This document shows, piece after piece, positions 14,877 through 32,612 of a DNA stretch of 64,000 nt. The notes under the pieces were generated by a model. That model was given only the letters and a program-made list of their open reading frames with translations. It was not told where the DNA came from and did no database searches. How positions within the stretch are numbered: the stretch's first letter is position 1; every line of letters begins with the position of its first letter. The translations under genes were made by a program, and so were the position numbers. Origin of the DNA: a virus; the IMG/VR virus record IMGVR_UViG_3300042922_001062, positions 15,478 to 79,477 of that record; one strand, written 5' to 3'.

Positions 14877-15976
14877 ATGAACCGGATGTATTCGGTCCTC
14901 ACCGTCAAGGCGGTGGAGGATGACCAGCGCATTATCCGCGGCACCGCCACCACGCCGTCGCCGGACCGCATGGGCGATATCGTCGAGCCGCTCGGCGTGA
15001 CCTTCCAGAACCCGCTGGTGCTGCTTCACCAGCACGACAGCGACCGGCCGGTCGGCACGGTCACCTTCGACAGGCCGACGGCGAAGGGCATCACCTTCGA
15101 GGCGAGGCTCCCGACGATCGAAGAGCCCGGGCCGCTGAAAGACCGCGTCGACACCGCCTGGGGCGAGATCAAGGCCGGCTTGGTCCGTGCCGTCTCCATC
15201 GGTTTCCGAGCGCTCGAATACTCGTGGATGGATGATGGCGGCATCCGCTTCATCTCCACCGAGGTGCTCGAGCTCTCTCTCGTCTCCGTTCCGGCCAACG
15301 CCGAGGCGGTGATCTCCACCATCAAGTCGATCGACGCCCCTGTGCTCGCCGCGACCGGCAAGGGGCCGAAGGCGTCCGATCGGCCTGCACCTCCCGGCGT
15401 CTCGGGGAAATCCGTCAAACCAGTGAACCTGAGGCCGAAGGAGGCCAGGACCATGAAGACCATCGCTGAGCAGATTGCTGCTCTCGAAGCGTCGCGGCAG
15501 ACCAAGGCCGCGCGCATGGCTGAAGTCATGCAGAAGAGCATCGACGAGGGCCGCTCGACCGACGCCGCGGAGCAGGAGGAGTTCGACACCCTTGAGCAGG
15601 AAGTGTCCGCGCTCGACGGCGACCTCAAGCGCCTCCGCGCGCTGGAGAAGGCGCAGGCCGCCACCGGGAAGCCGGTGATCGCCAATCAGATCCGGACGGC
15701 CGAGCAGGGCACCACCGCGCGTTCGGGTGTCACCCTGAAGTCCGCGGCGCCGGATAAGGGCATCCGCTTCGCGCGGTACGCCAAGTGCCTCGCCATCTCC
15801 ACCAAGACCCATCAGTCCGTGGTGTCGGTGGCCGAGGCCATGTACGGCGGCAAGGATGACGACTTCATCGACATCGTGAAGGCCGCTGTCTCGGCGATGA
15901 CCACCGGCAACACCGATGCGCTCATCGGCAACGAGGGCGGTTTCGCCGACTTCGTGGAATTCCTCCGCCCGATGAC
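14877..15976 (+). CDS. Prohead protease-major capsid fusion, 5' part (interrupted by the satellite; reads on to a stop at 16004)
   Basis: HK97-type protease motifs DRMGDIV, LLHQHD, AVSIGF, ELSLVSVPAN, then coiled-coil delta domain and capsid start. Confidence 0.92.
15959..15976 (+). repeat. attL core (18-bp direct repeat)
   Basis: ATTCCTCCGCCCGATGAC, identical to 31721-31738. Confidence 0.95.
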
Positions 15977-16024
15977 GAGTGTCAACCAAGCGGTCGCGAT
16001 TTAGCGAACACTTTCAATATGTTG

Positions 16025-16049
16025 AGCCCGGCCGTGCGCCGGGCTTTTT
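16025..16049 (+). terminator. Rho-independent terminator just inside attL
   Basis: AGCCCGGC-CGTGC-GCCGGGCT followed by TTTT. Confidence 0.82.
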
Positions 16050-16079
16050 CGTTTCCGTAGTGTCCACAGCGTTCAAGAA

Positions 16080-16092
16080 AATCAATGGCTTA
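16080..16092 (+). promoter_or_regulatory. IHF binding site (second, one-mismatch site at 16012-16024)
   Basis: AATCAA-TGGC-TTA matches WATCAA-N4-TTR exactly. Confidence 0.65.
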
Positions 16093-16114
16093 CACGGGCA
16101 CCCGGTGCCTCCAT

Positions 16115-16132
16115 GCGACAAATGAGCGACAA
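16115..16132 (+). repeat. Putative integrase arm-type sites (left arm)
   Basis: GCGACAA twice, 11 bp apart; the same arrangement occurs at 31669-31686. Confidence 0.65.
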
Positions 16133-16152
16133 CGTAATCGAGGGAACTGGCT

Positions 16153-16425
16153 GTGAACGCGACAAAAAAAGCCGAAGGTGAAATCCTCTACGGGGTAAAG
16201 GCCATCGCGAAGTTTCTCGGGGTGACGCGCCGGCAAGCGCAACACCTCGTCGACTCCAAGGCGGTGCCAAGCTTCAAGATGGGGCGGACGGTGTGCGCCC
16301 GGCCCGAGCGGGTGCGAAGCGTGATTGAAGCAGCGGAGAACGGCAGGGCCGCGCCAAGCGATCAGGTGGACCAACCGCAGGACGGCGGGCAGCTTAACCT
16401 TCTCGGCGGCGGCGAACATGGCTAG
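16153..16425 (+). CDS. AlpA/excisionase-like HTH protein
   Basis: [19 protein letters not shown]...[13 protein letters not shown]; paralogue of 29218-29613. Confidence 0.75.
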
Positions 16426-17482
16426 CGCCAGTATGCTCCCGATCGTCACGGTGTCGAATGGCATCGTGATTGCCTCCAGCCGCGACGTGGCGGCCTATTT
16501 CGACGCAGACCATCGCGTGGTGCTGCTGGCGATCGATACGCTCATGGTTGAGGCCCCCGACGTAGCCGAGGCACACTTCCGCGAGCACCACGGCGAGGCC
16601 AGGCACTACGACATGACGCGCGGTGGCCTAGCGCTGCTGGCGCGCTCGCTGAGCGGTCCGCAGGTCGGGCGGTGGCGTGAGCGCTATCTCGAAGCCTTCG
16701 ACCGCCAGCAGCGCGCGCTGGGGCAGGGCAGCGCGCTCTCGGTGCGTCAGCATCAGCCGAGTCCGTCGCCGGCGTTGGTGCCTGCCCTGCCGGACAACCT
16801 TGCCGATGGTGAGCCTCTCACGATGTCGAGCCGGGAGATCGCCGACCTCACCGGCAAGGAGCACGACAACGTCCGCCGGGACATCAAGAACCTCGCGGAT
16901 GGGCTTTCCCTCAGCTTTGAGGAAAAGTCCGAACCGTCGGCAGGCGGGCGCCCCTCGAAGGTGTTTCTCCTTCCGAAGCGTGAGTGCCTGATCCTCGTCT
17001 CGGGGTACAGCATCGAGCTGCGTGCCCGTATCATCGATCGCTGGATGGAACTTGAGGTGCGGCAGGCGGACCCGGTGGCGATGTTCAACCCGTCCGATCC
17101 GCGCATCGTGTCGGCCGTGCTGTCCCATTGGCATCAGGAGGCCACGACGGCACACGCAGCGCTTGCCAAGGCCGAGGGCACGCTGGCGCGGATCGAGACC
17201 ACTGCCGGCTCTCTCTGCATCACGGACGCTGCGAAGGCGCTCTCGCACCCGCCCAAGGCGCTGTTCGCCAAGCTCTACCGCAACCATTGGACCTATCGGC
17301 GCGGTGGCAAGGGCGATTGGCTGGGCCATGCCGACAAGTGCCGTGCCGGCCTGCTGGATCACCAGCCTACGACTTATCAGCGTGACGGCGAGACGGTGAT
17401 CGGCACGCAGGTCGTCGTGACACCCAAGGGATTGCGGAAGCTGGCCGAGCTGCTCGCTCACGATCCGGATTGGAGGGACTGA
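16418..17482 (+). CDS. Antirepressor-like protein: two Rha-type domains plus a KilA-C (ANT) domain
   Basis: [31 protein letters not shown]...[29 protein letters not shown]...VTPKGL. Confidence 0.85.
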
Positions 17483-17709
17483 TGCCCGACATCATCGACG
17501 TCGACTGGGAATGCTGTGACGCCGAGGGTGAATCCTTTGAGCACCACGCCGAGCCGGACAAGGTGGCGGAAGGCCTGCTGATCGACGAGCCAGTGCTGGT
17601 GCGCTACCCCAACGGCCGTATAGCTGATGGCAACCGCATCGTGGTGACGGAGCGTGGCCTGGAGGCGCTGAAGTCCTTCGTCATCGAGGAATCGAAGGGC
17701 AGCCACTGA
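17482..17709 (+). CDS. Small protein resembling the KilA-C C-terminus
   Basis: RIVVTERGLEALK versus [13 protein letters not shown] in the upstream gene; TGATG coupling. Confidence 0.5.
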   Translation: MPDIIDVDWECCDAEGESFEHHAEPDKVAEGLLIDEPVLVRYPNGRIADGNRIVVTERGLEALKSFVIEESKGSH

Positions 17710-17820
17710 GGGGGGGAGGTCAAAAGGTCAGACGGCGTCCGTCTCTGGACCGGCGCCCCCTACATGCAGAGATTTTTTCCTCCCTGGACAAATTCGGGGT
17801 GCGTACCAGCGCCGCGTACT
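17710..17820. repeat. Satellite copy of the helper putative cos region
   Basis: 17747-17820 matches 12523-12597 at 72/75 positions; upstream G-run and GTCAAAA also conserved. Confidence 0.9.
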
Positions 17821-17919
17821 ACGTAATATCCATATGATATCAGGCAGATAGCCTCGGTACGCACCCTGCGTACCGCGCGTACTAAGTGCGCACTGCGTAC
17901 CACTGATAGCAGAGGCCCC

Positions 17920-17995
17920 GGGGGGGTATGCGGAACGTCAGGGACGCCCTTCTCTGCACCGGCGGCCTCACCAAAACTCTCGCAAAGCCAGATTG
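17920..17995. other. Second, diverged cos-like element
   Basis: G7 run, GTCAG, TCTCTGCACCGGCG with the same G-run to ACCGGCG spacing (38 vs 39 bp). Confidence 0.55.
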
Positions 17996-18005
17996 AGGTC
18001 CCGGA

Positions 18006-18377
18006 ATGTCTAATCTGGCTTCCGAGATGAGCTTCGCGGCGCGCGTCGATGAGCGCGAGCGGATGATGCTGCAGGCGATCAGCCATGCGGGATGGTGGAT
18101 GTCGCCCGACGGCCGGATCGGCGAACGGGATGCCGCGGCGCTCCTGGGGTACGGACACCCGGATTCATTCCGGAACGCGAGACGTCGCGCGGATCCTGGT
18201 GGGTGGCCACGTGTATTTCGCCTCGGCGGGAACGGAAACAAGCTGACCTATCAGGTCCGAGATCTGGCGGAGTTCGTCGAGCGCAAAGCAAATCCGCCGG
18301 CCGAAACCTACGATATTTTCCGCAAAGTCAATCGCGCGGGATCGGCGCTCTCCGACGCCCGTCGTAAGCTTGCTTGA
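18006..18377 (+). CDS. Putative DNA-binding protein (MerR/AlpA-like HTH)
   Basis: IGERDAAALLGY...SFRNAR...GGWPRVFR...LTYQVRDLAEFVE. Confidence 0.6.
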   Translation: MSNLASEMSFAARVDERERMMLQAISHAGWWMSPDGRIGERDAAALLGYGHPDSFRNARRRADPGGWPRVFRLGGNGNKLTYQVRDLAEFVERKANPPAETYDIFRKVNRAGSALSDARRKLA

Positions 18378-19426
18378 CCTTGATAAGGAGCGAGCTGATG
18401 CGCATCAATTCCGCCGGACACCTGCCCGCGATCATGGGCTTTCTCGCCCGGGCGCACCTTGCCGGTGTTTCGCCCTTGGAGATCGCGGCGAAGGATGGTG
18501 CTCCGCCCGACCTTCAGCTCCTCGTCAGGGCTGCGACCGGTGCCGTCATGCTCGGCGACGTCGCTGCTGCTGGCGCGCTGCGCGCGGCGGTCGAAACCTT
18601 CATCGGGACGCTGCGCGGGCGCTCCATATTCTACACGCTCCTCGCTGATGGCGCGTTCGTCCGCGCGCCGATCCGCACACGGCTCACAGCAGTCGAGAAC
18701 GGCGTGGTCGCCTACGTCGTGAGCGAGGGGCGTGCGAAGCCGGTTTCGAGGATCGGGCTCGACGCCGCGGGACTGGAACGCGCCAAGGCCACTTCGCTCA
18801 TCGTGCTGACGCGCGAGGCTGTGTACGCATCCTCGCCGGCGCTGCTCGACTTCCTGACCTCTGAGCTGCAGGGCGCGGTCTCGGCGGCCGTCGACGCGGC
18901 CTTCATCGCAAGGATCATCGACGACGGCTCGCCGAGCCTCACGCCGACCTTCAGCGCGTCGGGAGCGGGCATCGACGACATCAGGTTTGACCTCCGGCGA
19001 CTGCTCGACGCCGTGAACGTCACGGGCAGCGGCCATCTGGCATGGCTGATGTCGGCAGACGTCGCGAACCGCCTCGCCGTGCTCGTGGAGCACTTTCCCG
19101 GTATGGCGCCGAACGGTGGGACATTGCTCGAGCAGCCGGCCTTCGTTTCCGAGGCCATCGACCCGGGCTCGCTGCACTGCCTCAACGCCGCGTCGATCGC
19201 GGCGGACAGCGAGGCCATCATCGTGCGGTCCAGCGACGTCGCCAGCGTCGTTATGGATACCGCCCCAGCGCAGGACAGCTCCACGCCGGCGGCGACGCAG
19301 AACGTGTCGATGTTTCAAACCAACTCGACCGCCGTGCTCGCGGAGGCGTTTTTCGGAGCGCAACGGGTGCGGCCGAACGCGCTGGCGACGCTGACGGACA
19401 TCGCCTGGGGCGACGTGGCCTCATGA
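18374..19426 (+). CDS. Satellite HK97-fold major capsid protein paralogue (no protease domain)
   Basis: Aligns with the helper capsid: FIGTLRGRSI/FVEFLRPMTI, VSEGRAKPV/VGEGKGKPL, QD...VSMFQTNS.A..AE. Confidence 0.85.
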   Translation: MTLIRSELMRINSAGHLPAIMGFLARAHLAGVSPLEIAAKDGAPPDLQLLVRAATGAVMLGDVAAAGALRAAVETFIGTLRGRSIFYTLLADGAFVRAPIRTRLTAVENGVVAYVVSEGRAKPVSRIGLDAAGLERAKATSLIVLTREAVYASSPALLDFLTSELQGAVSAAVDAAFIARIIDDGSPSLTPTFSASGAGIDDIRFDLRRLLDAVNVTGSGHLAWLMSADVANRLAVLVEHFPGMAPNGGTLLEQPAFVSEAIDPGSLHCLNAASIAADSEAIIVRSSDVASVVMDTAPAQDSSTPAATQNVSMFQTNSTAVLAEAFFGAQRVRPNALATLTDIAWGDVAS

Positions 19427-20250
19427 GCAGGGTCGATCCCGCTACCGCAGCAGCGCTGAATAAAATTGACGTCCGCGTCGCGGAGATCGACGCCGCGCTC
19501 AAACGCCTCGACGCTGATGACTACAAGCACTTCAAAGATTTGCACCGCGCCGGTGCAAACGAGAAGGTGCGGCAGCAGCTCAACGCGGAACGCGCGGTGC
19601 AGATGCACAACCGGGCGCGGGTGCTCGCAGGCGAGCCGGTTGAACAGCCAGCACCCACGGAGCAGGCCAAGGCACTGCGGCTGCCGCCGGTGGAGCTCTA
19701 TGGCAAGGCCGAGCGACCCTGCAGAATCGAGCCAGCCATTACCCGCAGAGACGACTTGGTCGGCGTTGGCGATAGAACCGCCGATGAGATTCTCGATGTC
19801 GCCGAAGTTGAAGAGCGCGTGTCAGCGGACATCGCGCAGGCGATCGAGGTCGCCCACGCCAAGATGCGGGAGGCAATGACGCGCAATCCCACGTACGCGT
19901 TCGACTTGTCGACGCTGATCATGCTGAAGACCACCATCATCCAGGCGATGGCGCAGGCGACAATCATCGAAGCCGTCGGCGGTGTGCTGCGGCGCGAGCT
20001 CGAGGTGAAGCTCACCGATCGGATCGCAGTGCTGGAAAAGCGGATCGAGGAGTTTGAGCGCGGCGGCTTCGAGTATCGCGGCATCTATCAGCGCGCCCAA
20101 GCCTACAGACGAGGTCAGGTCGTCACCCATGACGGAAGCATGTGGGTGGCCGCCAAGGACACCGTGCTGCCGCCGGGCGCGCCGGAAGGCATGAACGAGT
20201 GGACTTTGGCCGTTAAGCGTGGCCGGGACGGGAAGGACGCCACCCGATGA
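19423..20250 (+). CDS. Coiled-coil protein with a C-terminal domain paralogous to the helper collagen-like head protein
   Basis: YRGIY....Y.RG.VVT.DGSMW...WTLAVKRGRDGKDA versus helper YRGVF....Y..GDTVT.AGSLW...WTLAAKRGRDGKEA; ATGA coupling. Confidence 0.8.
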   Translation: MSRVDPATAAALNKIDVRVAEIDAALKRLDADDYKHFKDLHRAGANEKVRQQLNAERAVQMHNRARVLAGEPVEQPAPTEQAKALRLPPVELYGKAERPCRIEPAITRRDDLVGVGDRTADEILDVAEVEERVSADIAQAIEVAHAKMREAMTRNPTYAFDLSTLIMLKTTIIQAMAQATIIEAVGGVLRRELEVKLTDRIAVLEKRIEEFERGGFEYRGIYQRAQAYRRGQVVTHDGSMWVAAKDTVLPPGAPEGMNEWTLAVKRGRDGKDATR

Positions 20251-20432
20251 AAGAGCAAGCCGTCGCCCTAACGAAGCGGTGCGTTGCGGCCTTCGTCGAG
20301 AAGATGGGCAGGCAGCCGGATGCGCACGAGCTCGATCTGCTCGCTGCGGCCGCGTGCCGGCATCTCCAAGACCGCGAGCACATGCGCCGATGGCCCGCCG
20401 CGACGGCGTCCGGATCTTCCACGGTGAACTAG
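20247..20432 (+). CDS. Small hypothetical protein
   Basis: ATGA-coupled 61-aa ORF. Confidence 0.45.
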   Translation: MKEQAVALTKRCVAAFVEKMGRQPDAHELDLLAAAACRHLQDREHMRRWPAATASGSSTVN

Positions 20433-20466
20433 CTCAAGCCTAGACCTCATAGCCTTAGGTGAGGCG

Positions 20467-20757
20467 ATGCCAAACTCAGAGATGCTCACAACTTACTCCC
20501 ATGGTACCGTTTCAGTGACCAAGGGATCAAAGACCGTCCGGGGCAAAGGCGTTTTCTGGCTGGACGTGCGGTCGTGCGACAGCCTCGAAGCCGGGGACCG
20601 CTGCCTCACCACCATCGCCTCAGTAGACGCGACCGATTTCACCACATTGGAGCTTGCTGTGCCTTGGTGCGGCGAGACAGCGGAGGACGTCCCTTACGTG
20701 ATCCGCTTCGACGCTCCGCAGCGATTTCCCGGCTACAGGGGGCGCGCCGATGGCTGA
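20467..20757 (+). CDS. Stand-alone tail-fibre N-terminal (anchor) domain paralogue
   Basis: YSHGTVSV...TIAS...LELAVP....DVPYVIRFDAPQRF matches the first ~80 aa of both fibres. Confidence 0.75.
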   Translation: MPNSEMLTTYSHGTVSVTKGSKTVRGKGVFWLDVRSCDSLEAGDRCLTTIASVDATDFTTLELAVPWCGETAEDVPYVIRFDAPQRFPGYRGRADG

Positions 20758-21847
20758 CCTCTACAGCACCGGCACCGTCTCGGTGCCCAGCGGTGGCACG
20801 ACTGTTACGCTGACCGGGGGGCTCTTTAGCGGTGTTCTCGCCGGCGATACGATCGAGATCGGCGAGCTTCCCGCGAAGACGATCGCATCGCCGACCGACG
20901 CCAGTCATCTGGAACTGGCCGTCGCGGTGACGTCCGATCAGGTGGATGTCCCCTATGTGCTTCGCTTCGACGCCCCGTCGCGCTTCACCTCCGGCTATCT
21001 CGCGGAGCAGGTGCGGGCGCTGATCGCGCAGGCGGGCATCATCAAGGCCGCCCGGCCAAACTACGAGGTGCAGAGCCTCGGCGGCAACGCACCGCCTGGC
21101 TCTCCTGTGACGGGAGACATGTACGTCGTCGGCACCGCGCCGACCGGCGCATGGGCTGGGCGGGCGAATAATTTGGCGCAGTGGACCGGCTCGGCGTGGC
21201 TGTTCACAGCGCCGGATCGAGGAACGACGGTCGTTAGCGTGGCGACGGGTATTGTGTCGATCTGGGGCGGCGCGGCGTGGCTACCTTACATAGGCCCTGG
21301 CGCTTTCATGCAGACGCTGATGCCGGCGGCGACGCAGGCCGCGGCGCAGACTACGCTTGGGCTCGATAGGGCCGCCCGCACGCTCTGGACGGCGGATATC
21401 TCCACTCCTGTCGCGGCGATTAACGTCCCGCTCGCGGCGGCGTATCGGGCGTTCAAGCTGACCATCGGCTGCCTCACCGGCTCGGATGCGACAGCCAACT
21501 TGATACACCGCATCAGCCGCGACGGGTCCACGGTCGACACGGGTGCATCGGACTATCAGGGGTCTGCGCTTGTTGTCGTGGGTAGCGGAGTTTCCGCGGC
21601 GGCGCGGACGGCGTCGGATGCGTTTCTCGGCACGTTGACGGCCACGATGGTAGCAATGGACATCACGCCTGGCGCGGCCGGTCTGCCGTACATGTGCACT
21701 TCCCAGTCTATGGAGTTCGCCTCTGGATATCGTCTTGATTTCCGCGGTACCCGTGCCGCGAATGTCGGGCGCGCTCAGTTCATCCAGATCTACCCGTCAG
21801 CCGGCAATCTGACTGCTGGGACGCTGACGCTGGCCGGGTATCCGTGA
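20750..21847 (+). CDS. Satellite tail fibre / receptor-binding protein (DUF2793-like module, distinct C-terminus)
   Basis: First 177 aa are 153/177 identical to helper fibre 49412-50605; the C-termini are unrelated. Confidence 0.9.
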   Translation: MADLYSTGTVSVPSGGTTVTLTGGLFSGVLAGDTIEIGELPAKTIASPTDASHLELAVAVTSDQVDVPYVLRFDAPSRFTSGYLAEQVRALIAQAGIIKAARPNYEVQSLGGNAPPGSPVTGDMYVVGTAPTGAWAGRANNLAQWTGSAWLFTAPDRGTTVVSVATGIVSIWGGAAWLPYIGPGAFMQTLMPAATQAAAQTTLGLDRAARTLWTADISTPVAAINVPLAAAYRAFKLTIGCLTGSDATANLIHRISRDGSTVDTGASDYQGSALVVVGSGVSAAARTASDAFLGTLTATMVAMDITPGAAGLPYMCTSQSMEFASGYRLDFRGTRAANVGRAQFIQIYPSAGNLTAGTLTLAGYP

Positions 21848-21892
21848 CGCCCGCCGCCGGGCTTCGAGGTGGTGGCTCGGCGGTCAGATATG

Positions 21893-21918
21893 AAAAAGGC
21901 CGCCCCGAAGGGCGGCCT
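21893..21918 (-). terminator. Terminator for the minus-strand moron (possibly bidirectional)
   Basis: AAAA-AGGCCGCCC-CGAA-GGGCGGCCT. Confidence 0.75.
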
Positions 21919-21932
21919 CTCTCACCGTCCGG

Positions 21933-22250
21933 CTAGCACGGTGTCTGCTTATTGGTGCAATCGCGACGGCCGTCATCCGAATTGCCGCTGCCGGCGGCCT
22001 TGGCCTCGCCGGGGTTCATGGAGTTGTTGCGCCCCTCGCTGGGCATGGTCGATTTCGGCACACCGGAGCCAACGGCCGGGGACTGGTCCTTGTAGCGGCT
22101 CTCGGTGGTGCCCGAGCTATTGTCGGAGCCGGTTGTAGCTCCCGCCGTGGAACCCGAGTTCCCTTGGCCGCTGCTCTGGGCCATCACAGGTGTGCCGAGC
22201 GCCAGTAATGCTGCCAGCGTGGCGATGGAAGTCGTCTTGGCATAGTTCAT
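21933..22250 (-). CDS. Small secreted Ser/Gly/Thr-rich protein (moron)
   Basis: Signal peptide ending PVMA-Q, low-complexity body, C-terminal CxxxxxxC; AGGAGG RBS. Confidence 0.75.
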   Translation of the reverse strand: MNYAKTTSIATLAALLALGTPVMAQSSGQGNSGSTAGATTGSDNSSGTTESRYKDQSPAVGSGVPKSTMPSEGRNNSMNPGEAKAAGSGNSDDGRRDCTNKQTPC

Positions 22251-22274
22251 GAGTTCCTCCTTCGATATGAGGCG

Positions 22275-22299
22275 AACCCACAGCTCTAGATGACGTTCC
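22275..22299 (-). promoter_or_regulatory. EcfG/sigmaT-type promoter
   Basis: Minus strand GGAAC-N16-GGTT, 25 bp upstream of the start codon. Confidence 0.72.
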
Positions 22300-22464
22300 G
22301 ACCAAATTGGCCGCTGAGGTACACGGCTAATGCACCTCGCGCCAACGTGAGCACTTTCCTGCCAGGCGGCTATGTCGATTTATTCCTTCCGCGAATCGTC
22401 AATCATCGCCTCGATGGCCCCGATCATCACTTCGAGGTCGGCGATCAGATGCAGTAACGATTTG

Positions 22465-22578
22465 CTCGACTTCCGCGGCACCCGCATCGCCAATCCAGGC
22501 CGTGCGCAGTTCATCCAGATATACCCGTTCGCCGGTAATCTGGCAGCCGGCCCTCTCACGCTGAAGGACATTCTGTAG
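22465..22578 (+). pseudogene. Orphan 3' end of an alternative tail-fibre allele
   Basis: 114-bp diverged duplicate of 21734-21847 (LDFRGTR.AN.GRAQFIQIYP.AGNL.AG.LTL). Confidence 0.8.
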
Positions 22579-22589
22579 GAGCATCTCAC

Positions 22590-24170: not shown

Positions 24171-26600
24171 TCAGGCAGCCGCAGGCTTTTGCCGAGCCAC
24201 GTACATTGCCATAGGCACGCACGGCAAATGGTGATTCGAGCTCGACATGAGGAGCAATCGGTTCACGTTGTTGTCCTGGAACCCGCCGATCCGTATCACC
24301 GATTGCAGCCATCCGATGGAATGCGGCACTCTGGCCTTCTTGATAAGGCGTTGGATGGCTGTCCTACTTCGGGAATGTCGCGCCGCCAATTGCGCTTCGA
24401 AGTTTGGCTTCACTTCTTCCGCCTTCAGAGACTTTAGGTAGTTGAACGTGCGACGGATCACCGATCGGAACTCGACGAATTCAGGTGCTTCTCTCAAGCT
24501 AAGGATATCGTCGCACTGGGTCGGAAACTCCAGTGGGGCTGACCGGATGTCTGCCGCAAGCGAATGTAGCGTCGATGAAGTTCCCAAATAGCGGCGGTTC
24601 AAAGCTGCGTTCAGCTCCAGCCAACGATGCTTGCTGTCAGTGAGGATCTGCGCCCCCGTGGCTTGCGCCAAATACATGGCGATTTCGAAGTTGGGTGCCA
24701 ACTTCATGAGCTGGATCTGTCCACCTGTTTCGGGAGCCAAGCTCTCCGGTTGGAGCACGGCAAGCGGGTCGGCCTCTCGGAGCTGGCCGATTTGCGGCAT
24801 CAGTTCGTCGAGATCGACTGTTTCGCCCTGCGGCATTGCTCGAGCGATCTGATTGCGTAGCCCCTCTTCGGACAAAGCGAGGAGTGTGCGCTTGAAGTCG
24901 TCGCGCATCAGTTCCTCCATCCGAGGGTCGTTTGAAATCTCGAACTCAAGGCCGGATGCCCGCGCCCTGGCCATCGCCATCATTTGATCGCGCAGGTGGA
25001 TGTCGAAGTCACAAGGATCGGGGATCAGGTTGACCAGACCCGCCTCGACCAACGGCATCATGCTCACGAAGAAATGGATCGTCTTCAACAGTTCGCCCCG
25101 GTACTGACCCGGGTGCTCGGTCGGACGGAATTTCTTATTCAGGGTGCCGGGGTGGACGAAAGGGTGCTGAATCAGCATTTCACCGAAATACAGCGGCGAA
25201 CCAATCGCGAATTCGTTGATGTGCTGGGGATGGAGGGAGCCGGTATAGACCGATCGAAGCTGCCCGTCCGGCTTTGGGAGTAAGTCGAGCAGGTCGGTTT
25301 CCAGTGGCCATAGGCCTTCGTAAAGGCTATAGGCACTTGCAATCTTTTCGTCGGTCATCTCGCGCCGAACTTGGGTCCAGTCCTTTCTGTCCAGTTCAAG
25401 GAGGTTCGACAAGCCGCGGAGAAGCATAAGGTTTCGCTCGCGGATGCTCCTAGCCGTCCAGCTCGGCCTTAGCTCGGATGGCTTCGGCTCGCAGCATCTG
25501 GCGAAGAGGTCGCCGGACCCACAACCACAAGAGTCCTTCGGTTTCAGCGGTGACACCGGCAGATCCTTTTGAAGGAACGCGCGCGGCTTTTCTGACCGGC
25601 CAAACTCATCCTGATAGTGAACATGTCCGCTGTCGAATTTGGCAAACATTTCACCGCCAAAAAGGTGGAGTTCGGTCTCTGGTGGTCGTAGTGTCTCCCG
25701 CAACTCCTTCCAAGATTTCTTCACCGTTTTCTCTGGATAAAGCCATGCCTCGCGTCCAGCAGCGATGTATCTTTCGGAGCGAGCCTTGAGGATGAAGTTG
25801 ATCTCCGAGACTTGTTGATCATCGAGTTCGCGAGACCGGATGAAATCGATCGTCGATACCATCGTCGGATGAAAGTTCCGAGCGAAGGTCCGGTTCTCAA
25901 GCGGATTCACGTCCGGGTTCTTTGCATACTCAAGATTTGTCAGGATCAGGCAGTGGTCTGGTCCCAGAGGGAAGATGGTCTGCGAACCTTTCCATGCAAT
26001 TGCCGGATCGTCGGTTTGGTCGCAACCAAGGTCTGCGGGAGGAGCAGCATAGTTATAAATCGTTACCGGATGGTCGGTAATGATGAACTTGACAGAGGCA
26101 TTTCCCGCCGAGACAATCTCCCGGACGCCAGTGGTCCAAATGGTACAATTGAGAAAACGAATACCCTGCATCTCAAGCATAAGCTCATTCTGGGAAAGCT
26201 CAGGGTACTGTCGCTTTAGCCACTCTAGGCCCTTTGGAGTGCGAAGCTTTTGGATGTCGATATACTCGAAAAAGGTCTTGAAGTGGGAGTGCCATGCGGC
26301 CTTGTCCAAGCCAGAGAGGGCGCGGACCGCGTCCGCGCCGCGGGTGTCAATGTCGCCGAATAGTTGTCGCTCGATTTCATCGTTTACCGCCGTTCCAAAG
26401 AATGTTGAATAAAGATCCCTTTGAACGAACGCACGGGATGTTGGAGAGTCAAACAATGACCGCCCTGTGTTTTTTCCTCCATCCCTCCGTGTGAAAATCG
26501 GCGGTGACAAGTCGAGATAGAATAAGGTTCTGCCTCCGTCGGTGAGGAAGCGTTCTTGATACCATTGGGGAACGTAGTGATTATTTCTTCTTACTGACAT
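24171..26600 (-). CDS. DUF4238-domain protein with a SEC-C-like motif (candidate anti-phage)
   Basis: N-terminal HYVPQWY, FIITDHPV, IFPLGP; central CGCGSG..FARCC; AT-richer codon usage. Confidence 0.75.
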   Translation of the reverse strand: MSVRRNNHYVPQWYQERFLTDGGRTLFYLDLSPPIFTRRDGGKNTGRSLFDSPTSRAFVQRDLYSTFFGTAVNDEIERQLFGDIDTRGADAVRALSGLDKAAWHSHFKTFFEYIDIQKLRTPKGLEWLKRQYPELSQNELMLEMQGIRFLNCTIWTTGVREIVSAGNASVKFIITDHPVTIYNYAAPPADLGCDQTDDPAIAWKGSQTIFPLGPDHCLILTNLEYAKNPDVNPLENRTFARNFHPTMVSTIDFIRSRELDDQQVSEINFILKARSERYIAAGREAWLYPEKTVKKSWKELRETLRPPETELHLFGGEMFAKFDSGHVHYQDEFGRSEKPRAFLQKDLPVSPLKPKDSCGCGSGDLFARCCEPKPSELRPSWTARSIRERNLMLLRGLSNLLELDRKDWTQVRREMTDEKIASAYSLYEGLWPLETDLLDLLPKPDGQLRSVYTGSLHPQHINEFAIGSPLYFGEMLIQHPFVHPGTLNKKFRPTEHPGQYRGELLKTIHFFVSMMPLVEAGLVNLIPDPCDFDIHLRDQMMAMARARASGLEFEISNDPRMEELMRDDFKRTLLALSEEGLRNQIARAMPQGETVDLDELMPQIGQLREADPLAVLQPESLAPETGGQIQLMKLAPNFEIAMYLAQATGAQILTDSKHRWLELNAALNRRYLGTSSTLHSLAADIRSAPLEFPTQCDDILSLREAPEFVEFRSVIRRTFNYLKSLKAEEVKPNFEAQLAARHSRSRTAIQRLIKKARVPHSIGWLQSVIRIGGFQDNNVNRLLLMSSSNHHLPCVPMAMYVARQKPAAA

Positions 26601-26657
26601 TGCCCTTTAGCATCGCTCCCGCCGCTAGTTGCTGCAATTCTTACCGGCTTGGGCGAA

Positions 26658-27920
26658 TTAAGGATGGCCTCGCAGCGCGATCATCTTGTTCGCGACACGG
26701 GCGGCCAAGTCGGAATGAAACTCCTCAAGGCTCTCCGCGGCTTCGATGAGGGCTTCGTCGGCACCGTCATCGTCCATCGCTTCGACCAGCTGCTCGACCT
26801 GTTGCGCAAGCTCTTCGAGCGCCTGATAGAGCCGGGTGCATTGGTCCAGAGTGAGCGACGGGTCGGCGAGGGCAGCGGGGACATCCTTGGCGAGATGCTT
26901 CGCCCTCTCGCCGCGCTCGCGCAGCAAAGTCATCCAGTCCGTCGCCATGTCGACGCGCTCCAGCAAAGCCGTCAGCTCCGCCCGTTTCAGGGTCGCCTCG
27001 ATAGTGGTCTCCTTCAACGCAGGTCCGCCGGGGCGGTGGGGGGACGTGACGGCCGCCCGAACGGCCAGTGCGCTCGATGGTGGCGCAGCGCCGATCGTGG
27101 CCATGAAATCCCCTTCGGGCACGATGCGCACGATATGGCCGGCGGCGAGCATGGCTTCGGCCTTGAGGTGCTTCGCGCTCTTGGGCGTGCCGAAATGCAC
27201 GTCTCGATCGCCGAGCACGAGCATGGTGGTGTGGCGGGTGACGCCCGGATGAACGTCGGCGCCAGCGGCCGCGGCAAGATCGGCCGCGGCGCTCTTGCCG
27301 AGCTCCAGCTTGCCGGTGAACACCACGACCTGGCCCGACAACGGCCCGTCGCCGACAGCCTCTCGGCGGATCGGAGCCGCCTTCTCGCCGGAGACCGGCA
27401 GTTCAACGCGGCGGAACCAGCCGTCCAGGTCCAGGCCGGTTTCTTCCATGGCGCGGTGCAGGATCACGCCGGCGGCGCGCGCGTCCTCAAGAGCGTCGTG
27501 GTGACGGAAGGCGATGCCGAACTCGGCGGCAATGATCGGCAGGCTGTAGCTCGCCCTGTCGGGCCATGCCCGCCGGGCGACGCGGATTGTGTCGAGCCAG
27601 CGGTTGCCGACGGATGCCAAGCCATGGCGATCGCAGGCCCGCATCAGCGACGTCCGGTCGAAGGGTCCATGGCTGATAACGGGCCGGTCACCGAGAGCAT
27701 TGAGAAGCCAGTCGTGCCGGTGGCGGAAGGGCAGGCACCCCGCGACGGCTTCCTCGTCGATGCCATGAATGCCGACGTTAAAGGCGTCGAAATAGTCCTC
27801 CGGGTCGATGAGGTGACATTCGGCGTGGATCTCTCTGCCGCCATCGAACACGACGACGCCAAGCTGGCAGATGCTGCTGTAGTTCGCGTTCGCGGTTTCT
27901 ACATCGATCGCGACGAACAT
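26658..27920 (-). CDS. DEDDh 3'-5' exonuclease plus BRCT domain and helical C-terminal extension
   Basis: IDVETAN, HHDALEDA; BRCT pattern LSGQVVVFTGKL...GVTRHTTMLVLG. Confidence 0.85.
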   Translation of the reverse strand: MFVAIDVETANANYSSICQLGVVVFDGGREIHAECHLIDPEDYFDAFNVGIHGIDEEAVAGCLPFRHRHDWLLNALGDRPVISHGPFDRTSLMRACDRHGLASVGNRWLDTIRVARRAWPDRASYSLPIIAAEFGIAFRHHDALEDARAAGVILHRAMEETGLDLDGWFRRVELPVSGEKAAPIRREAVGDGPLSGQVVVFTGKLELGKSAAADLAAAAGADVHPGVTRHTTMLVLGDRDVHFGTPKSAKHLKAEAMLAAGHIVRIVPEGDFMATIGAAPPSSALAVRAAVTSPHRPGGPALKETTIEATLKRAELTALLERVDMATDWMTLLRERGERAKHLAKDVPAALADPSLTLDQCTRLYQALEELAQQVEQLVEAMDDDGADEALIEAAESLEEFHSDLAARVANKMIALRGHP

Positions 27921-27991
27921 GGCTCCCTCCCATACCTTCCGGAAGGTTGCACATCGGCTCCGTTCACGGCAAGCGCGCCTGTTCTGCGACG

Positions 27992-28840
27992 CTACTCGGT
28001 GAGCAGCCCCGCCAAACGCCCCTTTGCGATAAGATAGCTAACAAAGGAAGCGCACGCTCCCAGCATGAACAACGCGTCAGCCTCGTCGACGTTCGCGGCG
28101 TCTTGGTCGAGCAGCGAGTGCCGTATGCCTTTCTCGTCGCTGGCATAGCCATAAAGGGCCGAGAATCCTTTCTTCATTGCCTCGTGGATGGCGCCAGCCT
28201 TTTCCAGTTTGACCAGAGCGGGGCCAAGTGTAGTCGATCCCGGCGCTAGCTGTACTGCGACCGCTTCAACAGCATGGATAGCTTCGCGCACGCAGTCCGG
28301 ATACTTTCCTGCAGTGGCAGCTTCTATCGAGGACCTCAAATGGGCATAGGCGCCGGTGATGCCGACAGCGCGTGCGGACTTGAGTGCTGCTTCGAGAGCT
28401 GCAGCCTCCGTCGGATCGGTTATGGGGGCAATAGTATCCCCGTCGACCACGCGATAAGCTGCGTGACAATTAACTAAAACGTCGGCAATATGCTTGCGGA
28501 ATGCGGCTGGCGTATAATTGAATCTTAGTATCCATTCAATAAATCCAAAAACTTCTACGTAGTCGCCGTTCTCTATAATTGTCTGAATTCGTCGTATTTG
28601 TTGAAAGTGCAAAGAAATGTATTCACTAGAGAATCTATTTTGATGAAATACAAACTCCGCCTTGAGAATTGCATTCCATGGCTCGGCAACGGTGTGGTCG
28701 CCGCGCCTTGGAAGAACATGCATGTCGAACACGAAGAACAATTGAGCCCTCAGTTGAGGGGAAAGTTTTTTCAAGGCGAGTTGCGTTGGTAACGGTGCGC
28801 GACCTTCGGCTTGCTCAAAGGAGACTAATTTCCTGTCCAT
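27992..28840 (-). CDS. AbiJ-NTD4-like / HEPN-like abortive-infection candidate
   Basis: SFEQAEG..PLP.QL..LRAQL N-terminus; C-terminal EAIHAVEA, LYGYASDEKGIRHS. Confidence 0.7.
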   Translation of the reverse strand: MDRKLVSFEQAEGRAPLPTQLALKKLSPQLRAQLFFVFDMHVLPRRGDHTVAEPWNAILKAEFVFHQNRFSSEYISLHFQQIRRIQTIIENGDYVEVFGFIEWILRFNYTPAAFRKHIADVLVNCHAAYRVVDGDTIAPITDPTEAAALEAALKSARAVGITGAYAHLRSSIEAATAGKYPDCVREAIHAVEAVAVQLAPGSTTLGPALVKLEKAGAIHEAMKKGFSALYGYASDEKGIRHSLLDQDAANVDEADALFMLGACASFVSYLIAKGRLAGLLTE

Positions 28841-28911
28841 GATCCGCCCCACTTCCAATGCGTGGCAACCTGCCATTGGAGTACCGGCAGCGCAATGAGC
28901 GCCTTCGCGAT

Positions 28912-29064
28912 CCCCTCTTGGCGGAGGGGGCGAAGCAGCGCATAAATGGGATTGGGCTTGAACACCCGGACGAAAGTTATAGCGCGACGCCCTTGGCGGG
29001 GCTTGGCGCCGAAGCACAGCGCCCTTGGCGGGGCGGTGTGCAAGGTCGCACCTTGGCGGGTGCG
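28912..29064 (+). repeat. Four hairpins with an identical TTGGCG loop
   Basis: CCCCTC/GAGGGG (28912-29), GCCC/GGGC (28989-29002), CGCCC/GGGCG (29020-35), CGCACC/GGTGCG (29047-64). Confidence 0.8.
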
Positions 29065-29080
29065 CCGGACCTGGCCATCA

Positions 29081-29167
29081 TGGCCGGGAGCGGTGCGCTA
29101 TGTCCAGAGGGTACGCCCTTAAAAGCGCGTCGGCCTGTAACTTTCGCAGGTGTTCAACTCCCGGCTG
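29081..29167 (+). ncRNA. C4/CI-type antisense RNA with upstream a1b1 and downstream a2b2 targets
   Basis: Closing stem GCCGGGAG/CTCCCGGC; TAACTTTCG and GGTGTTCAA are complementary to CGAAAGTTA/TTGAACACC (28958-79) and TTGAACA/CGAAAGT (29191-210). Confidence 0.75.
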
Positions 29168-29217
29168 CCGGTCTGCTACCGGCGACGGCCTTGAACAGCC
29201 GAACGAAAGTACATCCC

Positions 29218-29613
29218 ATGAACATGAACGCCAGCCGGCCGAGACCGGCCAGCATCCCACCGACCGAGGTCGCGCGGAAGCTTCTCGACATCCGTCACGA
29301 CCTCCAGCGCGAGCTTCAGCGCGTGGACACCCTGCTTGCAATGCTCGGCGCCCCGGTGGCGGCGGCAGGGTGTCAGCCGGACACTCCGGCGGGACGTGGC
29401 CCCAATTTCGGGGAGACGTCGGCGAGTGATCTCCTCTATGGAGCGCCAGCCATTGCGGGCTATCTTGGCCTTACCGAGAAGCAGGCCCGGCACCGTATCG
29501 AGGCGGGGAATATTCCGGCCTTCAAGATCGGCGGCACGGTGTGCGCCCGCCAATCCTCCCTGTCCACATGGCTCGCGAACCTCGAAGCCGCAGCCGCGCA
29601 TGCGGAGGACTGA
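29218..29613 (+). CDS. Excisionase/AlpA-like HTH protein with an N-terminal coiled coil
   Basis: LLYGAPAIAGYLGLTEKQARHRIEAGNIPAFKIGGTVCAR. Confidence 0.75.
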   Translation: MNMNASRPRPASIPPTEVARKLLDIRHDLQRELQRVDTLLAMLGAPVAAAGCQPDTPAGRGPNFGETSASDLLYGAPAIAGYLGLTEKQARHRIEAGNIPAFKIGGTVCARQSSLSTWLANLEAAAAHAED

Positions 29614-29615
29614 TC

Positions 29616-29867
29616 ATGCTGGTGGATCATGATTTCGGCGGACTGCTTCCGCCGGCAAGCGTCGATCGCATCGCCACGCGCCGCGCGCTCGCGTCGATCA
29701 TCGAGCGGGCGCTCGCGCTGCGGGATGCCCTCGATGATGACGCCGATCTTGAGGAGTGCGGCGACGCCGAGCCCAGCCTCGGTGCATCGGAGGCAGGCGC
29801 GCACTTCTGGTCTCAGATCGGATGGGCGAGGGGAGGCGACGGCGACCTTGAATGGGGGGGGTCATGA
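29616..29867 (+). CDS. Small acidic hypothetical protein
   Basis: GGAGG RBS; D.DLEE..D.EPSLG and DGDLE motifs. Confidence 0.55.
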   Translation: MLVDHDFGGLLPPASVDRIATRRALASIIERALALRDALDDDADLEECGDAEPSLGASEAGAHFWSQIGWARGGDGDLEWGGS

Positions 29868-30283
29868 CCGTGCGCTCTATGCTCTCGGTGGTCGGGGGAA
29901 CTGACCTCGCGGAGGGTATGCCCAAATTTGGGGGTACCCCCTTCCGCTCCTCCAAGGTGTTCATCAACCCCGACTGGTCGGCCATCTGCCACGCACTGGA
30001 AGGTATCGACCCTGAGCACCTCCAGACGGCGCCCATAGCGTCGCTGGTGGCCGGTATGGAGGCGCGCCTGCGGTTCTGCTGCCAGACGCTCTCCCTGCCG
30101 TCCTACGCGTGGCAGGAGGGCCATACGGCCATAGCGAAGTGCCTCGACGATGCGTCGGCGCTCTCCGACTTCGCGGCGCAGTGGGGAATCTCCACAGACT
30201 GGATACTACTAGGGGACGCCCGCTCCTATGTTCGGGTGCGCACCTTCGGCGCCGCCGGTAGCATCCGCTGGGCCGCTGACTGA
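29864..30283 (+). CDS. Hypothetical protein with an XRE-like C-terminal motif
   Basis: FAAQWGISTDWILLG; ATGA coupling. Confidence 0.5.
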   Translation: MTVRSMLSVVGGTDLAEGMPKFGGTPFRSSKVFINPDWSAICHALEGIDPEHLQTAPIASLVAGMEARLRFCCQTLSLPSYAWQEGHTAIAKCLDDASALSDFAAQWGISTDWILLGDARSYVRVRTFGAAGSIRWAAD

Positions 30284-30414
30284 CTATCCGCCCGGCGCCG
30301 CCTCGCGCTGGCGCCGGGCATTTCGATACGACATGAGAATTTCATCAAGGCATTGAGCATGCTGGGCTTTCCCGGGCTTCCTAAAGCTGCATGCGACAAC
30401 CGAGGCAAATCACC

Positions 30415-31713
30415 ATGGCGAGTGTTCGCAAGCGCAAGTGGATCCACAACGGCAAAGAGGGTGAAGCGTGGGTCGTCAACTATACCGACCAGGGGGGCAA
30501 GCGCCGGCAGAAGGCTTTCGACCGGAAGAAGGAAGCCGACGCTTATCGGACGGAGATCGAAGCGGAGATCAAGCAGGGAGTGCATACTGCTCTCAACGAG
30601 AGCGTGAAGGTCTCTGAGGCCGTGCGGGCGTTCTGCGTCGACTGCCAGAAGCGCGTGACGGCAGGAACGATGACGAATGGAGGATTCAAGAGCTACCGAT
30701 GGAAGCTCGAAAAGTACGCAGTGCAGAAGTTCGGCACCCGCAAGGTTTCCACGATCACGGCTGAGGAGGTGCAAGATTGGGTGGACGAGTTGCTGCGGAC
30801 GCTGTCGCCGACCTCTGTCACGGGCATCTACGTGGCCTTCGGCGTACTGCTATCGTTCGCGGTCCGGCGCCGTTGGGTGCGTAGGAACATCCTGCGGGAC
30901 ATGCCGTGCAAGCTACCGGCAAGGCCAAAGCGCAAGGCGGTGCCGACCAAGGCAGATATTTTGGCCCTGATGCACGCCGCATCTACGATGGAGCGCGGCG
31001 AGAACCTCCTGACGTTCGTCAATCGGCTGGTCGTTGTGGCCTGCGGCGTGTTCGGCGGCTTCCGCCCTGGAGAAACGTTCGGCCTTCAATGGGAGGACGT
31101 CGACTGGCAGAAGGGCGTCATCCACGTCCGCCACAGCCACACTAAAATGGACGGGCTGAAGGCGCCCAAGACCGAGGCGGGATATCGCGATGTTCCAATA
31201 ACCGCCCCCATTGATCGGGCCTTGCGGCAGTGCGCGCGCTACTGGACGATCCGCCGGCTTGCTGAAGGGCCGGGTTTCGGCAGCGATCACCCGAAGGCGA
31301 TCTTCTCGCGGATCGCGCGCATGTGGGAGGGCGAGTTTATCGCGGTGCGGCCGGAGGACCTGAAGGGGTTCGTAATCCTGACCAAGGTGGGCAAGCCGAT
31401 GACGGCGACGGCGAGCGCAACGACGTTCTGGTCCCGGCTGATGAAGGCGGCGGGCCTGCAAACGGAGGACGGGAAGAACCGCTTCACGCCGCACGCGCTG
31501 CGCCACGCCGCGGCGAGCCTGCTTATTGAGGCGGGTCTCGACGACATGAACCTGAAGCGCTTCATCGGGCACGCCTCGATCCAGACGACGAAGGATATCT
31601 ACGGGCACCTTTTCCCGACAGACGAACGGATGGTTGCAACAACGGCAGCGATTGCGCGCGATCTGGACGCAACAACAGAGCGACAAACATCTGTAAGGCA
31701 CCCGCTGCAATAG
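30415..31713 (+). CDS. int: Tyrosine recombinase (integrase)
   Basis: GFRPGE (R), PKTEAG (K), HALRH, IGHAS, IYGH (Y); N-terminal arm-binding-like domain; stop codon 7 bp before attR. Confidence 0.95.
   Translation: MASVRKRKWIHNGKEGEAWVVNYTDQGGKRRQKAFDRKKEADAYRTEIEAEIKQGVHTALNESVKVSEAVRAFCVDCQKRVTAGTMTNGGFKSYRWKLEKYAVQKFGTRKVSTITAEEVQDWVDELLRTLSPTSVTGIYVAFGVLLSFAVRRRWVRRNILRDMPCKLPARPKRKAVPTKADILALMHAASTMERGENLLTFVNRLVVVACGVFGGFRPGETFGLQWEDVDWQKGVIHVRHSHTKMDGLKAPKTEAGYRDVPITAPIDRALRQCARYWTIRRLAEGPGFGSDHPKAIFSRIARMWEGEFIAVRPEDLKGFVILTKVGKPMTATASATTFWSRLMKAAGLQTEDGKNRFTPHALRHAAASLLIEAGLDDMNLKRFIGHASIQTTKDIYGHLFPTDERMVATTAAIARDLDATTERQTSVRHPLQ
31669..31686 (+). repeat. Putative integrase arm-type sites (right arm, inside the int 3' end)
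   Basis: GCAACAA-CAGA-GCGACAA, 11-bp period; a further GCAACAA at 31636. Confidence 0.6.
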
Positions 31714-31720
31714 GAAAAAT

Positions 31721-31738
31721 ATTCCTCCGCCCGATGAC
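31721..31738 (+). repeat. attR core (18-bp direct repeat)
   Basis: ATTCCTCCGCCCGATGAC. Confidence 0.95.
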
Positions 31739-32612
31739 CATCGTCGGCCGCTTCGGCACCGGCAACATCCCGGCGCTGACCCGCATCCCCTTCCGGGTGC
31801 CGCTGATCTCGGAGACCTCCGAGAGCGACGCCCAGTGGGTCGGTGAGGGCAAGGGCAAGCCGCTGACCAAGTTCGGTGTCGGTCGCACCGAGCTCACTCC
31901 CCTGAAGATCGCCACCATCGCTGTCCAGACGATGGAACTCATCCGCGACAGCTCGCCGTCTTCGGACGTGCTGGTGCGGAACTCGCTGGCGAAGGCCATC
32001 GCGAAGCGCACCGACCTCTCGTTCATCGATCCGTCCTCGGCGGCTTCCGCCGGCGTCCGCCCGGGTTCGGTTCTGAATGGTGTCGCCGCCACGGCGAACA
32101 GCACGGCCACGGGCGCCGACGGTGTCCGCGAGGATGTCCAGGCGATCATTGGCGCCTTCGTGGCGGCGAACAACCCGCTGCAATCCGGCGTCTGGGTGAT
32201 GTCGGCGACCTACGCGCTTCGGCTCATGATGATGCTGAACCCGCTGGGCCAGCGCGAATTCCCCGGCATCACGATGCAGGGCGGCACCTTCTTCGAGCTG
32301 CCGGTCATCGTGTCGAACTACCTCGGCGACTACGTAGCCCTGGTCAATGCCGAGGACATCTGGTTCGCCGATGAAGGCGGGGTCGACGTCGCCATGTCGA
32401 CTGAAGCGTCGCTGGAGATGGTGGACAACCCGACGCAGGACAGCGGCGCCGAAACTCCGGTCGATTCCGAGATGGTGTCGATGTTCCAGACCAACTCGGT
32501 CGCCTTCCGCGCCGAGCGCACGCTGAACTGGGCGCGCCGCCGCTCCAGCGCGGTAGCGTGGATGGACAACATCACCTGGAGTGATCCGGCCGAAGAGAGC
32601 GCCGGCGTCTGA
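31734..32612 (+). CDS. Major capsid protein, 3' part (HK97 fold)
   Basis: AQWVGEGKGKP, LTPLKIA.I, SMFQTNSVAFRAER; in frame with the 5' part across the att core. Confidence 0.93.
   Translation: MTIVGRFGTGNIPALTRIPFRVPLISETSESDAQWVGEGKGKPLTKFGVGRTELTPLKIATIAVQTMELIRDSSPSSDVLVRNSLAKAIAKRTDLSFIDPSSAASAGVRPGSVLNGVAATANSTATGADGVREDVQAIIGAFVAANNPLQSGVWVMSATYALRLMMMLNPLGQREFPGITMQGGTFFELPVIVSNYLGDYVALVNAEDIWFADEGGVDVAMSTEASLEMVDNPTQDSGAETPVDSEMVSMFQTNSVAFRAERTLNWARRRSSAVAWMDNITWSDPAEESAGV

Follow-up and report, generated by a model that had tools for sequence, protein, structure and literature searches.

A probable helper-embedded satellite in the protease-scaffold-capsid gene of a cos-type siphovirus prophage from a Microvirga-like alphaproteobacterium

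The closest described counterparts of the element reported here are the helper-embedded phage-inducible chromosomal islands (HE-PICIs), whose founder, Eco567.11capE (hereafter 11capE), lies in the lambda-type capsid gene E of an Escherichia coli prophage (Tommasini, Mageeney & Williams 2023, PMC10111431). This founder encodes a capsid protein of its own and has a 258-bp copy of the cos region in common with its helper, and 491 further helper-embedded PICIs were reported at 14 late-gene sites, all of them in Enterobacteriaceae (PMC10111431). A search of 19,183 genomes of 'other Proteobacteria' with the 11capE integrase recovered phage surroundings only in Enterobacterales (PMC10111431), and no paper on helper-embedded satellites in Alphaproteobacteria was found by full-text literature searches. 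The present analysis concerns a stretch of viral DNA of 64,000 nucleotides (hereafter the window), which corresponds to positions 15,478 to 79,477 of the 79.5-kb IMG/VR record IMGVR_UViG_3300042922_001062. In this window, the major head gene of a prophage is split by an insert of 15,762 bp. This insert is very probably a helper-embedded satellite, integrated site-specifically in the VEFLRP(MT) codons of a gene in which protease, scaffold and capsid are fused. This gene belongs to the helper, very probably a cos-type siphovirus prophage whose host would be a Microvirga-like alphaproteobacterium.

The helper protease-scaffold-capsid gene is present on the plus strand in two pieces. The 5' piece (14877-16004) comprises 365 native codons followed by about nine foreign codons and a stop; it encodes a Peptidase_S78 domain (residues 47-149) and matches positions 10-372 of the 626 positions of phrog_617, a 'major head protein' family of protease-capsid fusions. 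The 3' piece (31739-32612), contained in an open reading frame (ORF) spanning 31734-32612, encodes the capsid shell domain (Phage_capsid, E 2.2e-15) and matches positions 368-626 of the same profile, which is covered end to end by both pieces together. An 18-bp direct repeat, ATTCCTCCGCCCGATGAC, is present in exactly two copies in the window, at 15959-15976 (attL core) and 31721-31738 (attR core), with 0 matches in 100 shuffles. Rejoining removes 15977-31738, and in silico joining of 14877-15976 with 31739-32612 yields an in-frame gene of 1974 nt (657 codons with a stop), which reads ...FADFVEFLRPMTIVGRFG... over the joint. A tyrosine integrase (30391-31713, plus strand) is encoded at the right end of the insert, with arm-binding and SAM-like N-terminal domains (Phage_integrase, E 8.6e-22; phrog_1, E 4.9e-58) and the R...HxxR...H...Y residues, and its stop codon lies 7 bp before the attR core. 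Both the integrase gene and the interrupted capsid gene are on the plus strand, which is the co-orientation characteristic of helper-embedded satellites. The split reading frame, the exact repeat, the in-frame 657-residue product and the intact integrase had all been described in a first-pass annotation made from the sequence alone, and each was confirmed by the repeat count, the rejoining, the phrog_617 coverage and the domain and catalytic residues of the integrase.

Uninterrupted homologues of the rejoined gene are present in cultured phages. Indeed, tblastn places both halves in one gene in PAJU2, IME307 and BP-4795, where the matches abut (2041-3177 and 3181-4023 in PAJU2; 29901-30986 and 30987-31811 in BP-4795). 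The insertion cuts the gene about 20-30 residues ahead of the point where capsid-domain profiles begin to align, so that the truncated helper product retains the protease and the scaffold.

Empty sites were found in Logan contigs of other metagenome runs. Contigs of three runs from two other studies (X2, X3 and X6: two plant metagenomes and one coded organism) join position 15958 to position 31721, skipping 15762 with 18 letters shared. The flanks of these contigs are near-identical to the window, as in a 3570-nt contig with 19 differences, and the contigs are empty attB sites in close relatives of the helper. The first-pass annotation had considered that homologous phages might naturally encode the two halves as separate genes; this is ruled out because the empty site is found in near-identical phages, and the gene is likewise single in the cultured phages. 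One soil metagenome run (X1, the probable source) holds the record almost completely and in integrated form, with even depth over helper and insert and with contigs that bridge attR (record 8, 24111-33400) and attL (record 1, 13500-17776). These data support a discrete integrative element in the helper protease-capsid gene, the removal of which restores this gene.

Related elements occupy the same codons in other proviruses. With the window integrase as query, three further proviruses with 66-68% identical integrases were recovered, namely in Microvirga lupini AT3.9 (L004, identical to L024), in a Microvirga metagenome-assembled genome (L005, identical to L027) and in L129. In each of them an element of 9.6-10.5 kb, with its own capsid homologue, is inserted at the VEFLRP codons: the protease-capsid gene is interrupted at residue ~366 and resumes 9.6-10.5 kb further downstream, directly behind the integrase gene (int), and the core is TTCCTSCGSCC or TT(T/C)CTTCGCCC, within these codons. 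A common layout is shared, consisting of attL, a terminator hairpin, a gene for an HTH_17-like (helix-turn-helix, HTH) protein, a capsid gene further in, an ORF of ~145 residues, int and attR. A relative was also found in free form. L105 is an IMG/VR contig of 10,756 bp with an exact 56-bp terminal repeat (IMG/VR class 'direct terminal repeats'); besides a capsid protein of its own, it encodes an integrase 75% identical to the window integrase in the best matching segment. In L105, the int stop is followed by AATATTCCTGCGTCC, AAGAAC..., the terminator and the HTH gene, which is the attP order predicted from the left side of attR and the right side of attL. This attP junction and the terminal repeat show that a relative exists as free circular or concatemeric DNA.

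Two side observations concern these and other embedded elements. A tape measure protein of 675 residues (phrog_10574, E 2e-119), unusual for a 10-kb satellite, is encoded in L005 (6074-8101), and tape-measure-like matches are also present upstream of int in L029, L033 and L035. In the provirus L171 (7635-11167 and 15962-16585), the embedded integrase is just 36% identical to that of the window, the AbiJ-like gene and the ORF upstream of int are 56% and 69% identical to their counterparts in the window satellite, and a downstream fibre has the same N-terminal anchor (71%). This mosaic points to a probable module exchange between satellites with different integrases.

More distant integrases (29-40% identity) in named genomes were examined for the gene that directly follows the int stop. 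The large terminase gene (terL) begins right after int in L025, L029, L030, L032, L034, L037 and L090, and the portal gene does so in L028 and L035; a protease-capsid fusion follows int in L048, a phrog_29 capsid gene in L031, a complete terL in L050 and L059, and head-tail connector genes in L033. Both halves of a split terL were located in L029 (16-bp repeat copies ~11 kb apart), L034 and L025. Downstream genes look complete in several members, in which the site may be at the 5' end of the gene or just upstream of it. A 15-bp repeat considered as the att site of L032 was rejected, as it lies inside int and is probably a chance match.

In a quick IQ-TREE phylogeny of 78 integrases, whose sampling was driven by two peptide patterns, a clade of 17 (Shimodaira-Hasegawa-like approximate likelihood ratio support 98) holds the window integrase and 13 of the examined cases. 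Each of the 16 clade members that could be resolved immediately precedes a prophage terL, portal, capsid or connector gene and has the same orientation. The window integrase, co-oriented with and upstream of head genes, follows the pattern of this late-region clade (upstream of head, packaging or connector genes), which recurs in the IMG/VR loci L108-L123. None of the tested members of the sister clade of 55 lies in a late region, and the placement of L029 (terL) at the base of the tree is not settled in the quick tree. The hosts of the clade are Microvirga, Methylobacterium, Mesorhizobium, Brucella/Ochrobactrum, Xanthobacter, Azospirillum and Sphingomonas, which are soil- or plant-associated. 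When placed among known late-gene-targeting integrases, as proposed in the first-pass annotation, the window integrase belongs to a separate alphaproteobacterial late-region clade and not to the HE-PICI clade, the 11capE integrase forming a very long outgroup branch. In L025 (chromosome of Azospirillum sp. A26, ~2253308-2269628), the prophage terL is split by an element of ~16 kb, which a complete terL-like gene of its own and a capsid gene bring nearer to a capsid-forming satellite than the window element.

The left part of the insert contains regulatory and packaging features. An intrinsic terminator is predicted just inside attL (16024-16046, plus strand; nine pairs, seven of them G-C, then a T run) and is the best terminator-like site in 14800-33100; a hairpin and T run with different stems are present at the same place in L004, L005, L129 and L105. 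In the excised circle this terminator would end the int transcript, and in the integrated state the same hairpin follows the truncated gene of the helper. As in all family members, the gene nearest to attL encodes a small protein with a weak match to HTH_17, an AlpA/excisionase-like family (16153-16425, plus strand; 18.8 bits, which is under the Pfam cut-off). This protein shares 47-48% identity with L004:1598-1837 and L005:1040-1261. It is followed by a Rha/KilAC (ANT) antirepressor-like regulator (16325-17482, plus strand; Phage_pRha, E 1.2e-27; ANT, E 1.3e-18; phrog_63). A second HTH_17-like protein, a candidate excisionase or AlpA, is encoded upstream of int (29218-29613, plus strand; weak HTH_17 match; 52% identical to L005:1040-1261). 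A further candidate DNA-binding protein, Cox/HTH_17-like, is encoded upstream of the capsid gene (18006-18377, plus strand); this ORF has no Pfam or PHROG match, and its resemblance to HTH/Cox clusters in the ESM Atlas (feature score 0.91-0.92, template modelling (TM) score 0.52-0.54) is a lead only. Three small winged-HTH proteins (HTH_17/Cox-like) are hence predicted in the element, at 16153-16425, 18006-18377 and 29218-29613, two of them being paralogues (37% identity), one per element end. A profile built from four HTH_17 proteins gave no meaningful PDB match. A protein of 143 residues is encoded immediately before int (29852-30283, plus strand) and shares 69% identity with the product of the ORF that precedes int in L171; ORFs of 148 residues are in the same position in L004 and L005, and a gene of ~145 residues occupies the position just upstream of int across the family. 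No family match was obtained for ORF 29852-30283, for which the ESM Atlas gave just weak XRE-like leads with TM scores below 0.4.

Several parts of the insert resemble the helper. A cos-like region (17747-17820) is 96% identical over 75 bp to helper positions 12523-12597. The satellite major capsid homologue, of HK97 type (350 residues; 18374-19426, plus strand), matches Phage_capsid (E 9.6e-8, positions 13-279 of 280) and positions 312-626 of phrog_617. It is devoid of a protease or a long scaffold and is 32% identical to the helper shell domain at the protein level; it is therefore a diverged homologue and not a copy. With an ATGA start/stop overlap, the capsid gene is followed by a gene encoding a coiled-coil protein (19423-20250, plus strand), whose C-terminus is head-accessory-like: its last 56 residues share 50% identity (E 1.5e-10) with the collagen-like helper protein encoded at 34149-35669 and correspond to the C-terminus of phrog_1289. 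A tail-fibre module (20467-21847, plus strand) consists of a 96-residue ORF with a fibre N-terminal domain (20467-20757) and a 365-residue DUF2793 fibre (20750-21847). Residues 1-180 of the satellite fibre are 85% identical to the helper fibre (49412-50605) and the two are unrelated beyond, DUF2793 being present in both. The 96-residue ORF, just upstream of the satellite fibre, repeats the fibre N-terminal domain alone and is 50% identical to the start of the helper fibre. A DUF4376 protein, possibly a fibre chaperone, is encoded further downstream (22590-23027, plus strand; E 4.6e-5; phrog_27624). The claim of the first-pass annotation that the insert copies the helper cos, capsid, head-accessory domain and tail fibre therefore holds, but unevenly, with identities that range from 96% over 75 bp in the cos-like region and 85% over 180 residues in the fibre N-terminus to 50% over 56 residues in the accessory domain and 32% in the capsid protein.

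The right part of the insert contains a low-GC cargo block on the minus strand (24171-29017). It encodes a DUF4238 protein (24171-26600), identified by Pfam and matched by neither PADLOC nor PHROGs, a DEDDh exonuclease-BRCT protein (26658-27920; PADLOC PDC-S48/DEDDh, E 2.9e-23) and an AbiJ_NTD4 candidate defence protein (27992-29017; PADLOC candidate system PDC-S32, E 5.6e-54). In Pfam and PHROG scans of the likely-coding ORFs of 15977-31720, structural matches were limited to the capsid homologue, the head-accessory-like domain and the fibre, and no terminase, portal or tail-shaft gene was recognised. No replication gene was recognised with Pfam and PHROGs in the insert or in L004 and L005.

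The surrounding prophage has a full set of genes, which besides the split head gene comprises those for HNH endonuclease, both terminase subunits, portal, tape measure, fibres and endolysin. In brief, the genome encodes an HNH endonuclease, partner of the cos-type terminase (11682-12059, plus strand; phrog_589, E 2.6e-23), a small terminase (12479-13171, plus strand; phrog_1206, E 2.5e-30), a large terminase (13168-14847, plus strand; phrog_9, E 3.3e-123), a portal protein (33038-34396, plus strand; phrog_2271, E 4e-133), the collagen-like, portal-adjacent protein mentioned above (34149-35669, plus strand; phrog_1289, Collagen) and a tail fibre (49412-50605, plus strand; DUF2793) whose N-terminal 180 residues are shared with the satellite fibre. 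In the terS ORF, the profile is matched from residue 45 onwards and the true start is likely at ~12606; the stretch from the HNH gene to this start contains the cos-like region of the helper (12523-12597). The interval between an HNH endonuclease gene and terS is the expected location of cos in HNH-dependent cos phages.

At the left end of the virus record (L023:1127-2483), a tRNA-Asp (record positions 1127-1203) is directly followed by a minus-strand ORF of 445 residues. This ORF has no Pfam or PHROG match and no similarity to the satellite integrase; with its 'LRWLDVDL'-like motif, it may encode a very divergent helper integrase. No copy of the 3' part of the tRNA-Asp was found in the window, nor was a direct repeat that would convincingly connect both ends, for which reason the helper length of ~52 kb is an estimate. 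At the other end, past the helper endolysin gene (52635-53303), GC content drops from ~65% to 50-60% with positive GC skew in 54000-64000, a segment that may be another island or host flank.

The first-pass annotation had stated that satellites restoring prophage late genes on excision were already described, which is correct, and had judged the present example unusually complete, which is overstated since a separate capsid gene and a helper cos copy are present in 11capE too (PMC10111431). The principle, including a capsid gene as target, has been published since the description of 11capE in 2023 (PMC10111431). Both 11capE and the window element lie inside, and co-oriented with, a prophage late gene (the major capsid gene) that excision restores, and both have their own capsid homologue, a helper cos copy and opposite-strand defence-type genes at the far end. 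On the circle, both present the order int, AlpA-type HTH, Bro/Rha-type regulators, late genes and cargo. The integrases, in contrast, are 22% identical (27 bits, a relationship at superfamily level only), far below the 400 bits in TBLASTN used by the HE-PICI authors as cut-off for their integrase clade. The 11capE capsid is of the lambda E family, whereas the window gene is an HK97-type protease-scaffold-capsid fusion. In 11capE, attP is upstream of int, int-alpA is at the left end and a primase is encoded; in the window element, attP lies downstream of int, which occupies the right end, and neither a primase nor a replication zone was recognised. The genome plan of HE-PICIs and other Gram-negative PICIs, in which int and alpA at the left end precede a Bro zone, a primase/replication zone and a late zone, is thus not followed, the order matching only as a cyclic permutation. 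Late read-through was proposed by the HE-PICI authors (PMC10111431), whereas a terminator stands just inside attL in the window element, which also differs from 11capE in its chimeric tail fibre and alphaproteobacterial host.

Two other kinds of satellite share features with the insert. Capsid-forming PICIs (cf-PICIs) have their own HK97-type capsid, protease, portal, connectors and small terminase, and depend on helper tails. The window element would resemble them in encoding an HK97-type capsid protein and in depending on helper tails, but of such a head and packaging module only a capsid protein and one head-accessory-like protein were found, and a tail fibre is encoded in addition. As with Ccm of SaPIbov5 or Sid of P4, the capsid-related protein could redirect head size, the element measuring ~15.8 kb against ~52 kb for its helper; the relatives, however, measure 9.6-10.7 kb in proviruses of ~40 kb, and because this ratio is not constant little weight is given to size redirection. 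Elements of this kind are known, and the novelty lies in the integrase lineage and in its target, the VEFLRP codons of a fused protease-scaffold-capsid gene.

A mechanism can be proposed on this basis. In the integrated state, the stop codon and the strong terminator inside attL would cut off the helper capsid shell domain and would probably also stop late transcription of downstream genes. It is plausible that the helper would be unable to build heads before excision, as the first-pass annotation had proposed, and the satellite capsid protein could in principle substitute. The same dependence on excision was deduced for 11capE by its authors (PMC10111431). After helper induction, the satellite would be replicated passively within helper DNA, as no replicon of its own is recognisable. 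The integrase, with an HTH_17-type directionality factor, would excise it and rebuild the helper capsid gene; the circle or concatemer would be cut and packaged by the helper HNH, TerS and TerL proteins via the copied cos-like site. Heads would be built from, or influenced by, the capsid protein of the satellite, and helper tails would be fitted with its fibre, which combines the helper anchor with another distal domain. The defence cargo would pay the host.

Several points weigh against this interpretation. Helper dependence is deduced from missing genes, and the cos function of the 75-bp repeat is assigned from position only. The HTH_17 assignments fall below the Pfam cut-off, and the competence of the helper is assumed from its gene content and a CheckV estimate of 86%. 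No attP or attB joint was seen in the X1 contigs, which is not evidence of absence because contigs drop rare variants.

A more specific extension is that the insertion point itself is functional; this is tentative and rather unlikely. According to it, the satellite would build heads with the helper protease and scaffold while the helper shell domain is withheld in cis. The cut near the scaffold/shell boundary would release a free protease-scaffold protein of 375 residues, still expressed with the terminase genes, and the satellite would supply a shell-only capsid protein free of protease and scaffold. As no replicon is present, the satellite would multiply only as a passenger of helper DNA, and would represent an obligately phage-resident hyperparasite lineage independent of the enterobacterial HE-PICIs.

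It is improbable that the insert is a generic integrative defence island or a small-prophage remnant, integrated off-target in a prophage as a dead end with the helper simply inactivated. The defence-like cargo block of lower GC, the lack of a recognised replication gene and the lack of an attP/attB joint in the source-run contigs would agree with such an origin. However, the same codons are used in four different proviruses whose capsid genes are 56-87% identical at the protein level, the whole integrase clade is located in late regions, and assembly yielded one relative in the form of a free circle or concatemer; a cos-like copy, a capsid gene and a helper-matched fibre anchor would, moreover, be useless to a plain island. 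Slightly less probable still is an anti-phage weapon, a resident copy of which would integrate in the capsid gene of an incoming or co-resident phage, particle spread being secondary. The conserved motif of an essential gene as target, the stop codon and terminator that silence the shell domain right behind attL and the defence genes aboard would suit this function, which is itself compatible with a satellite; the packaging signal, the capsid gene and the fibre nevertheless point to transfer in particles. An assembly artefact, in which a chimeric metagenome contig joins two elements at a short repeat, might be suspected from a record that is a metagenome contig and from an assembly graph that forks at the 75-bp cos repeat (joint 17820 to 13500), but is extremely improbable: the misassembled junction envisaged in the first-pass annotation is excluded because three other runs join 15958 to 31721 and X1 covers helper and insert evenly, with both att sites bridged, and the same architecture is present in the isolate genome L024.

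In summary, a helper-embedded satellite remains by far the most probable identity of the insert. Late-gene inserts of this type will break prophage predictions and the annotation of capsid and terminase genes in such genomes. To the known examples, the present one adds a fused head gene that is cut close to a domain boundary, a helper-anchored satellite fibre, which might change host range, and the lack of a recognisable replicon. A sister element is carried by a cultured strain, Microvirga lupini AT3.9, which makes the model testable. Helper-embedded satellites have so far been described only in Enterobacteriaceae, where they are tied to one integrase clade; the occurrence of the same solution in an unrelated alphaproteobacterial clade speaks for convergent evolution, with life inside helper late genes as a general satellite strategy.

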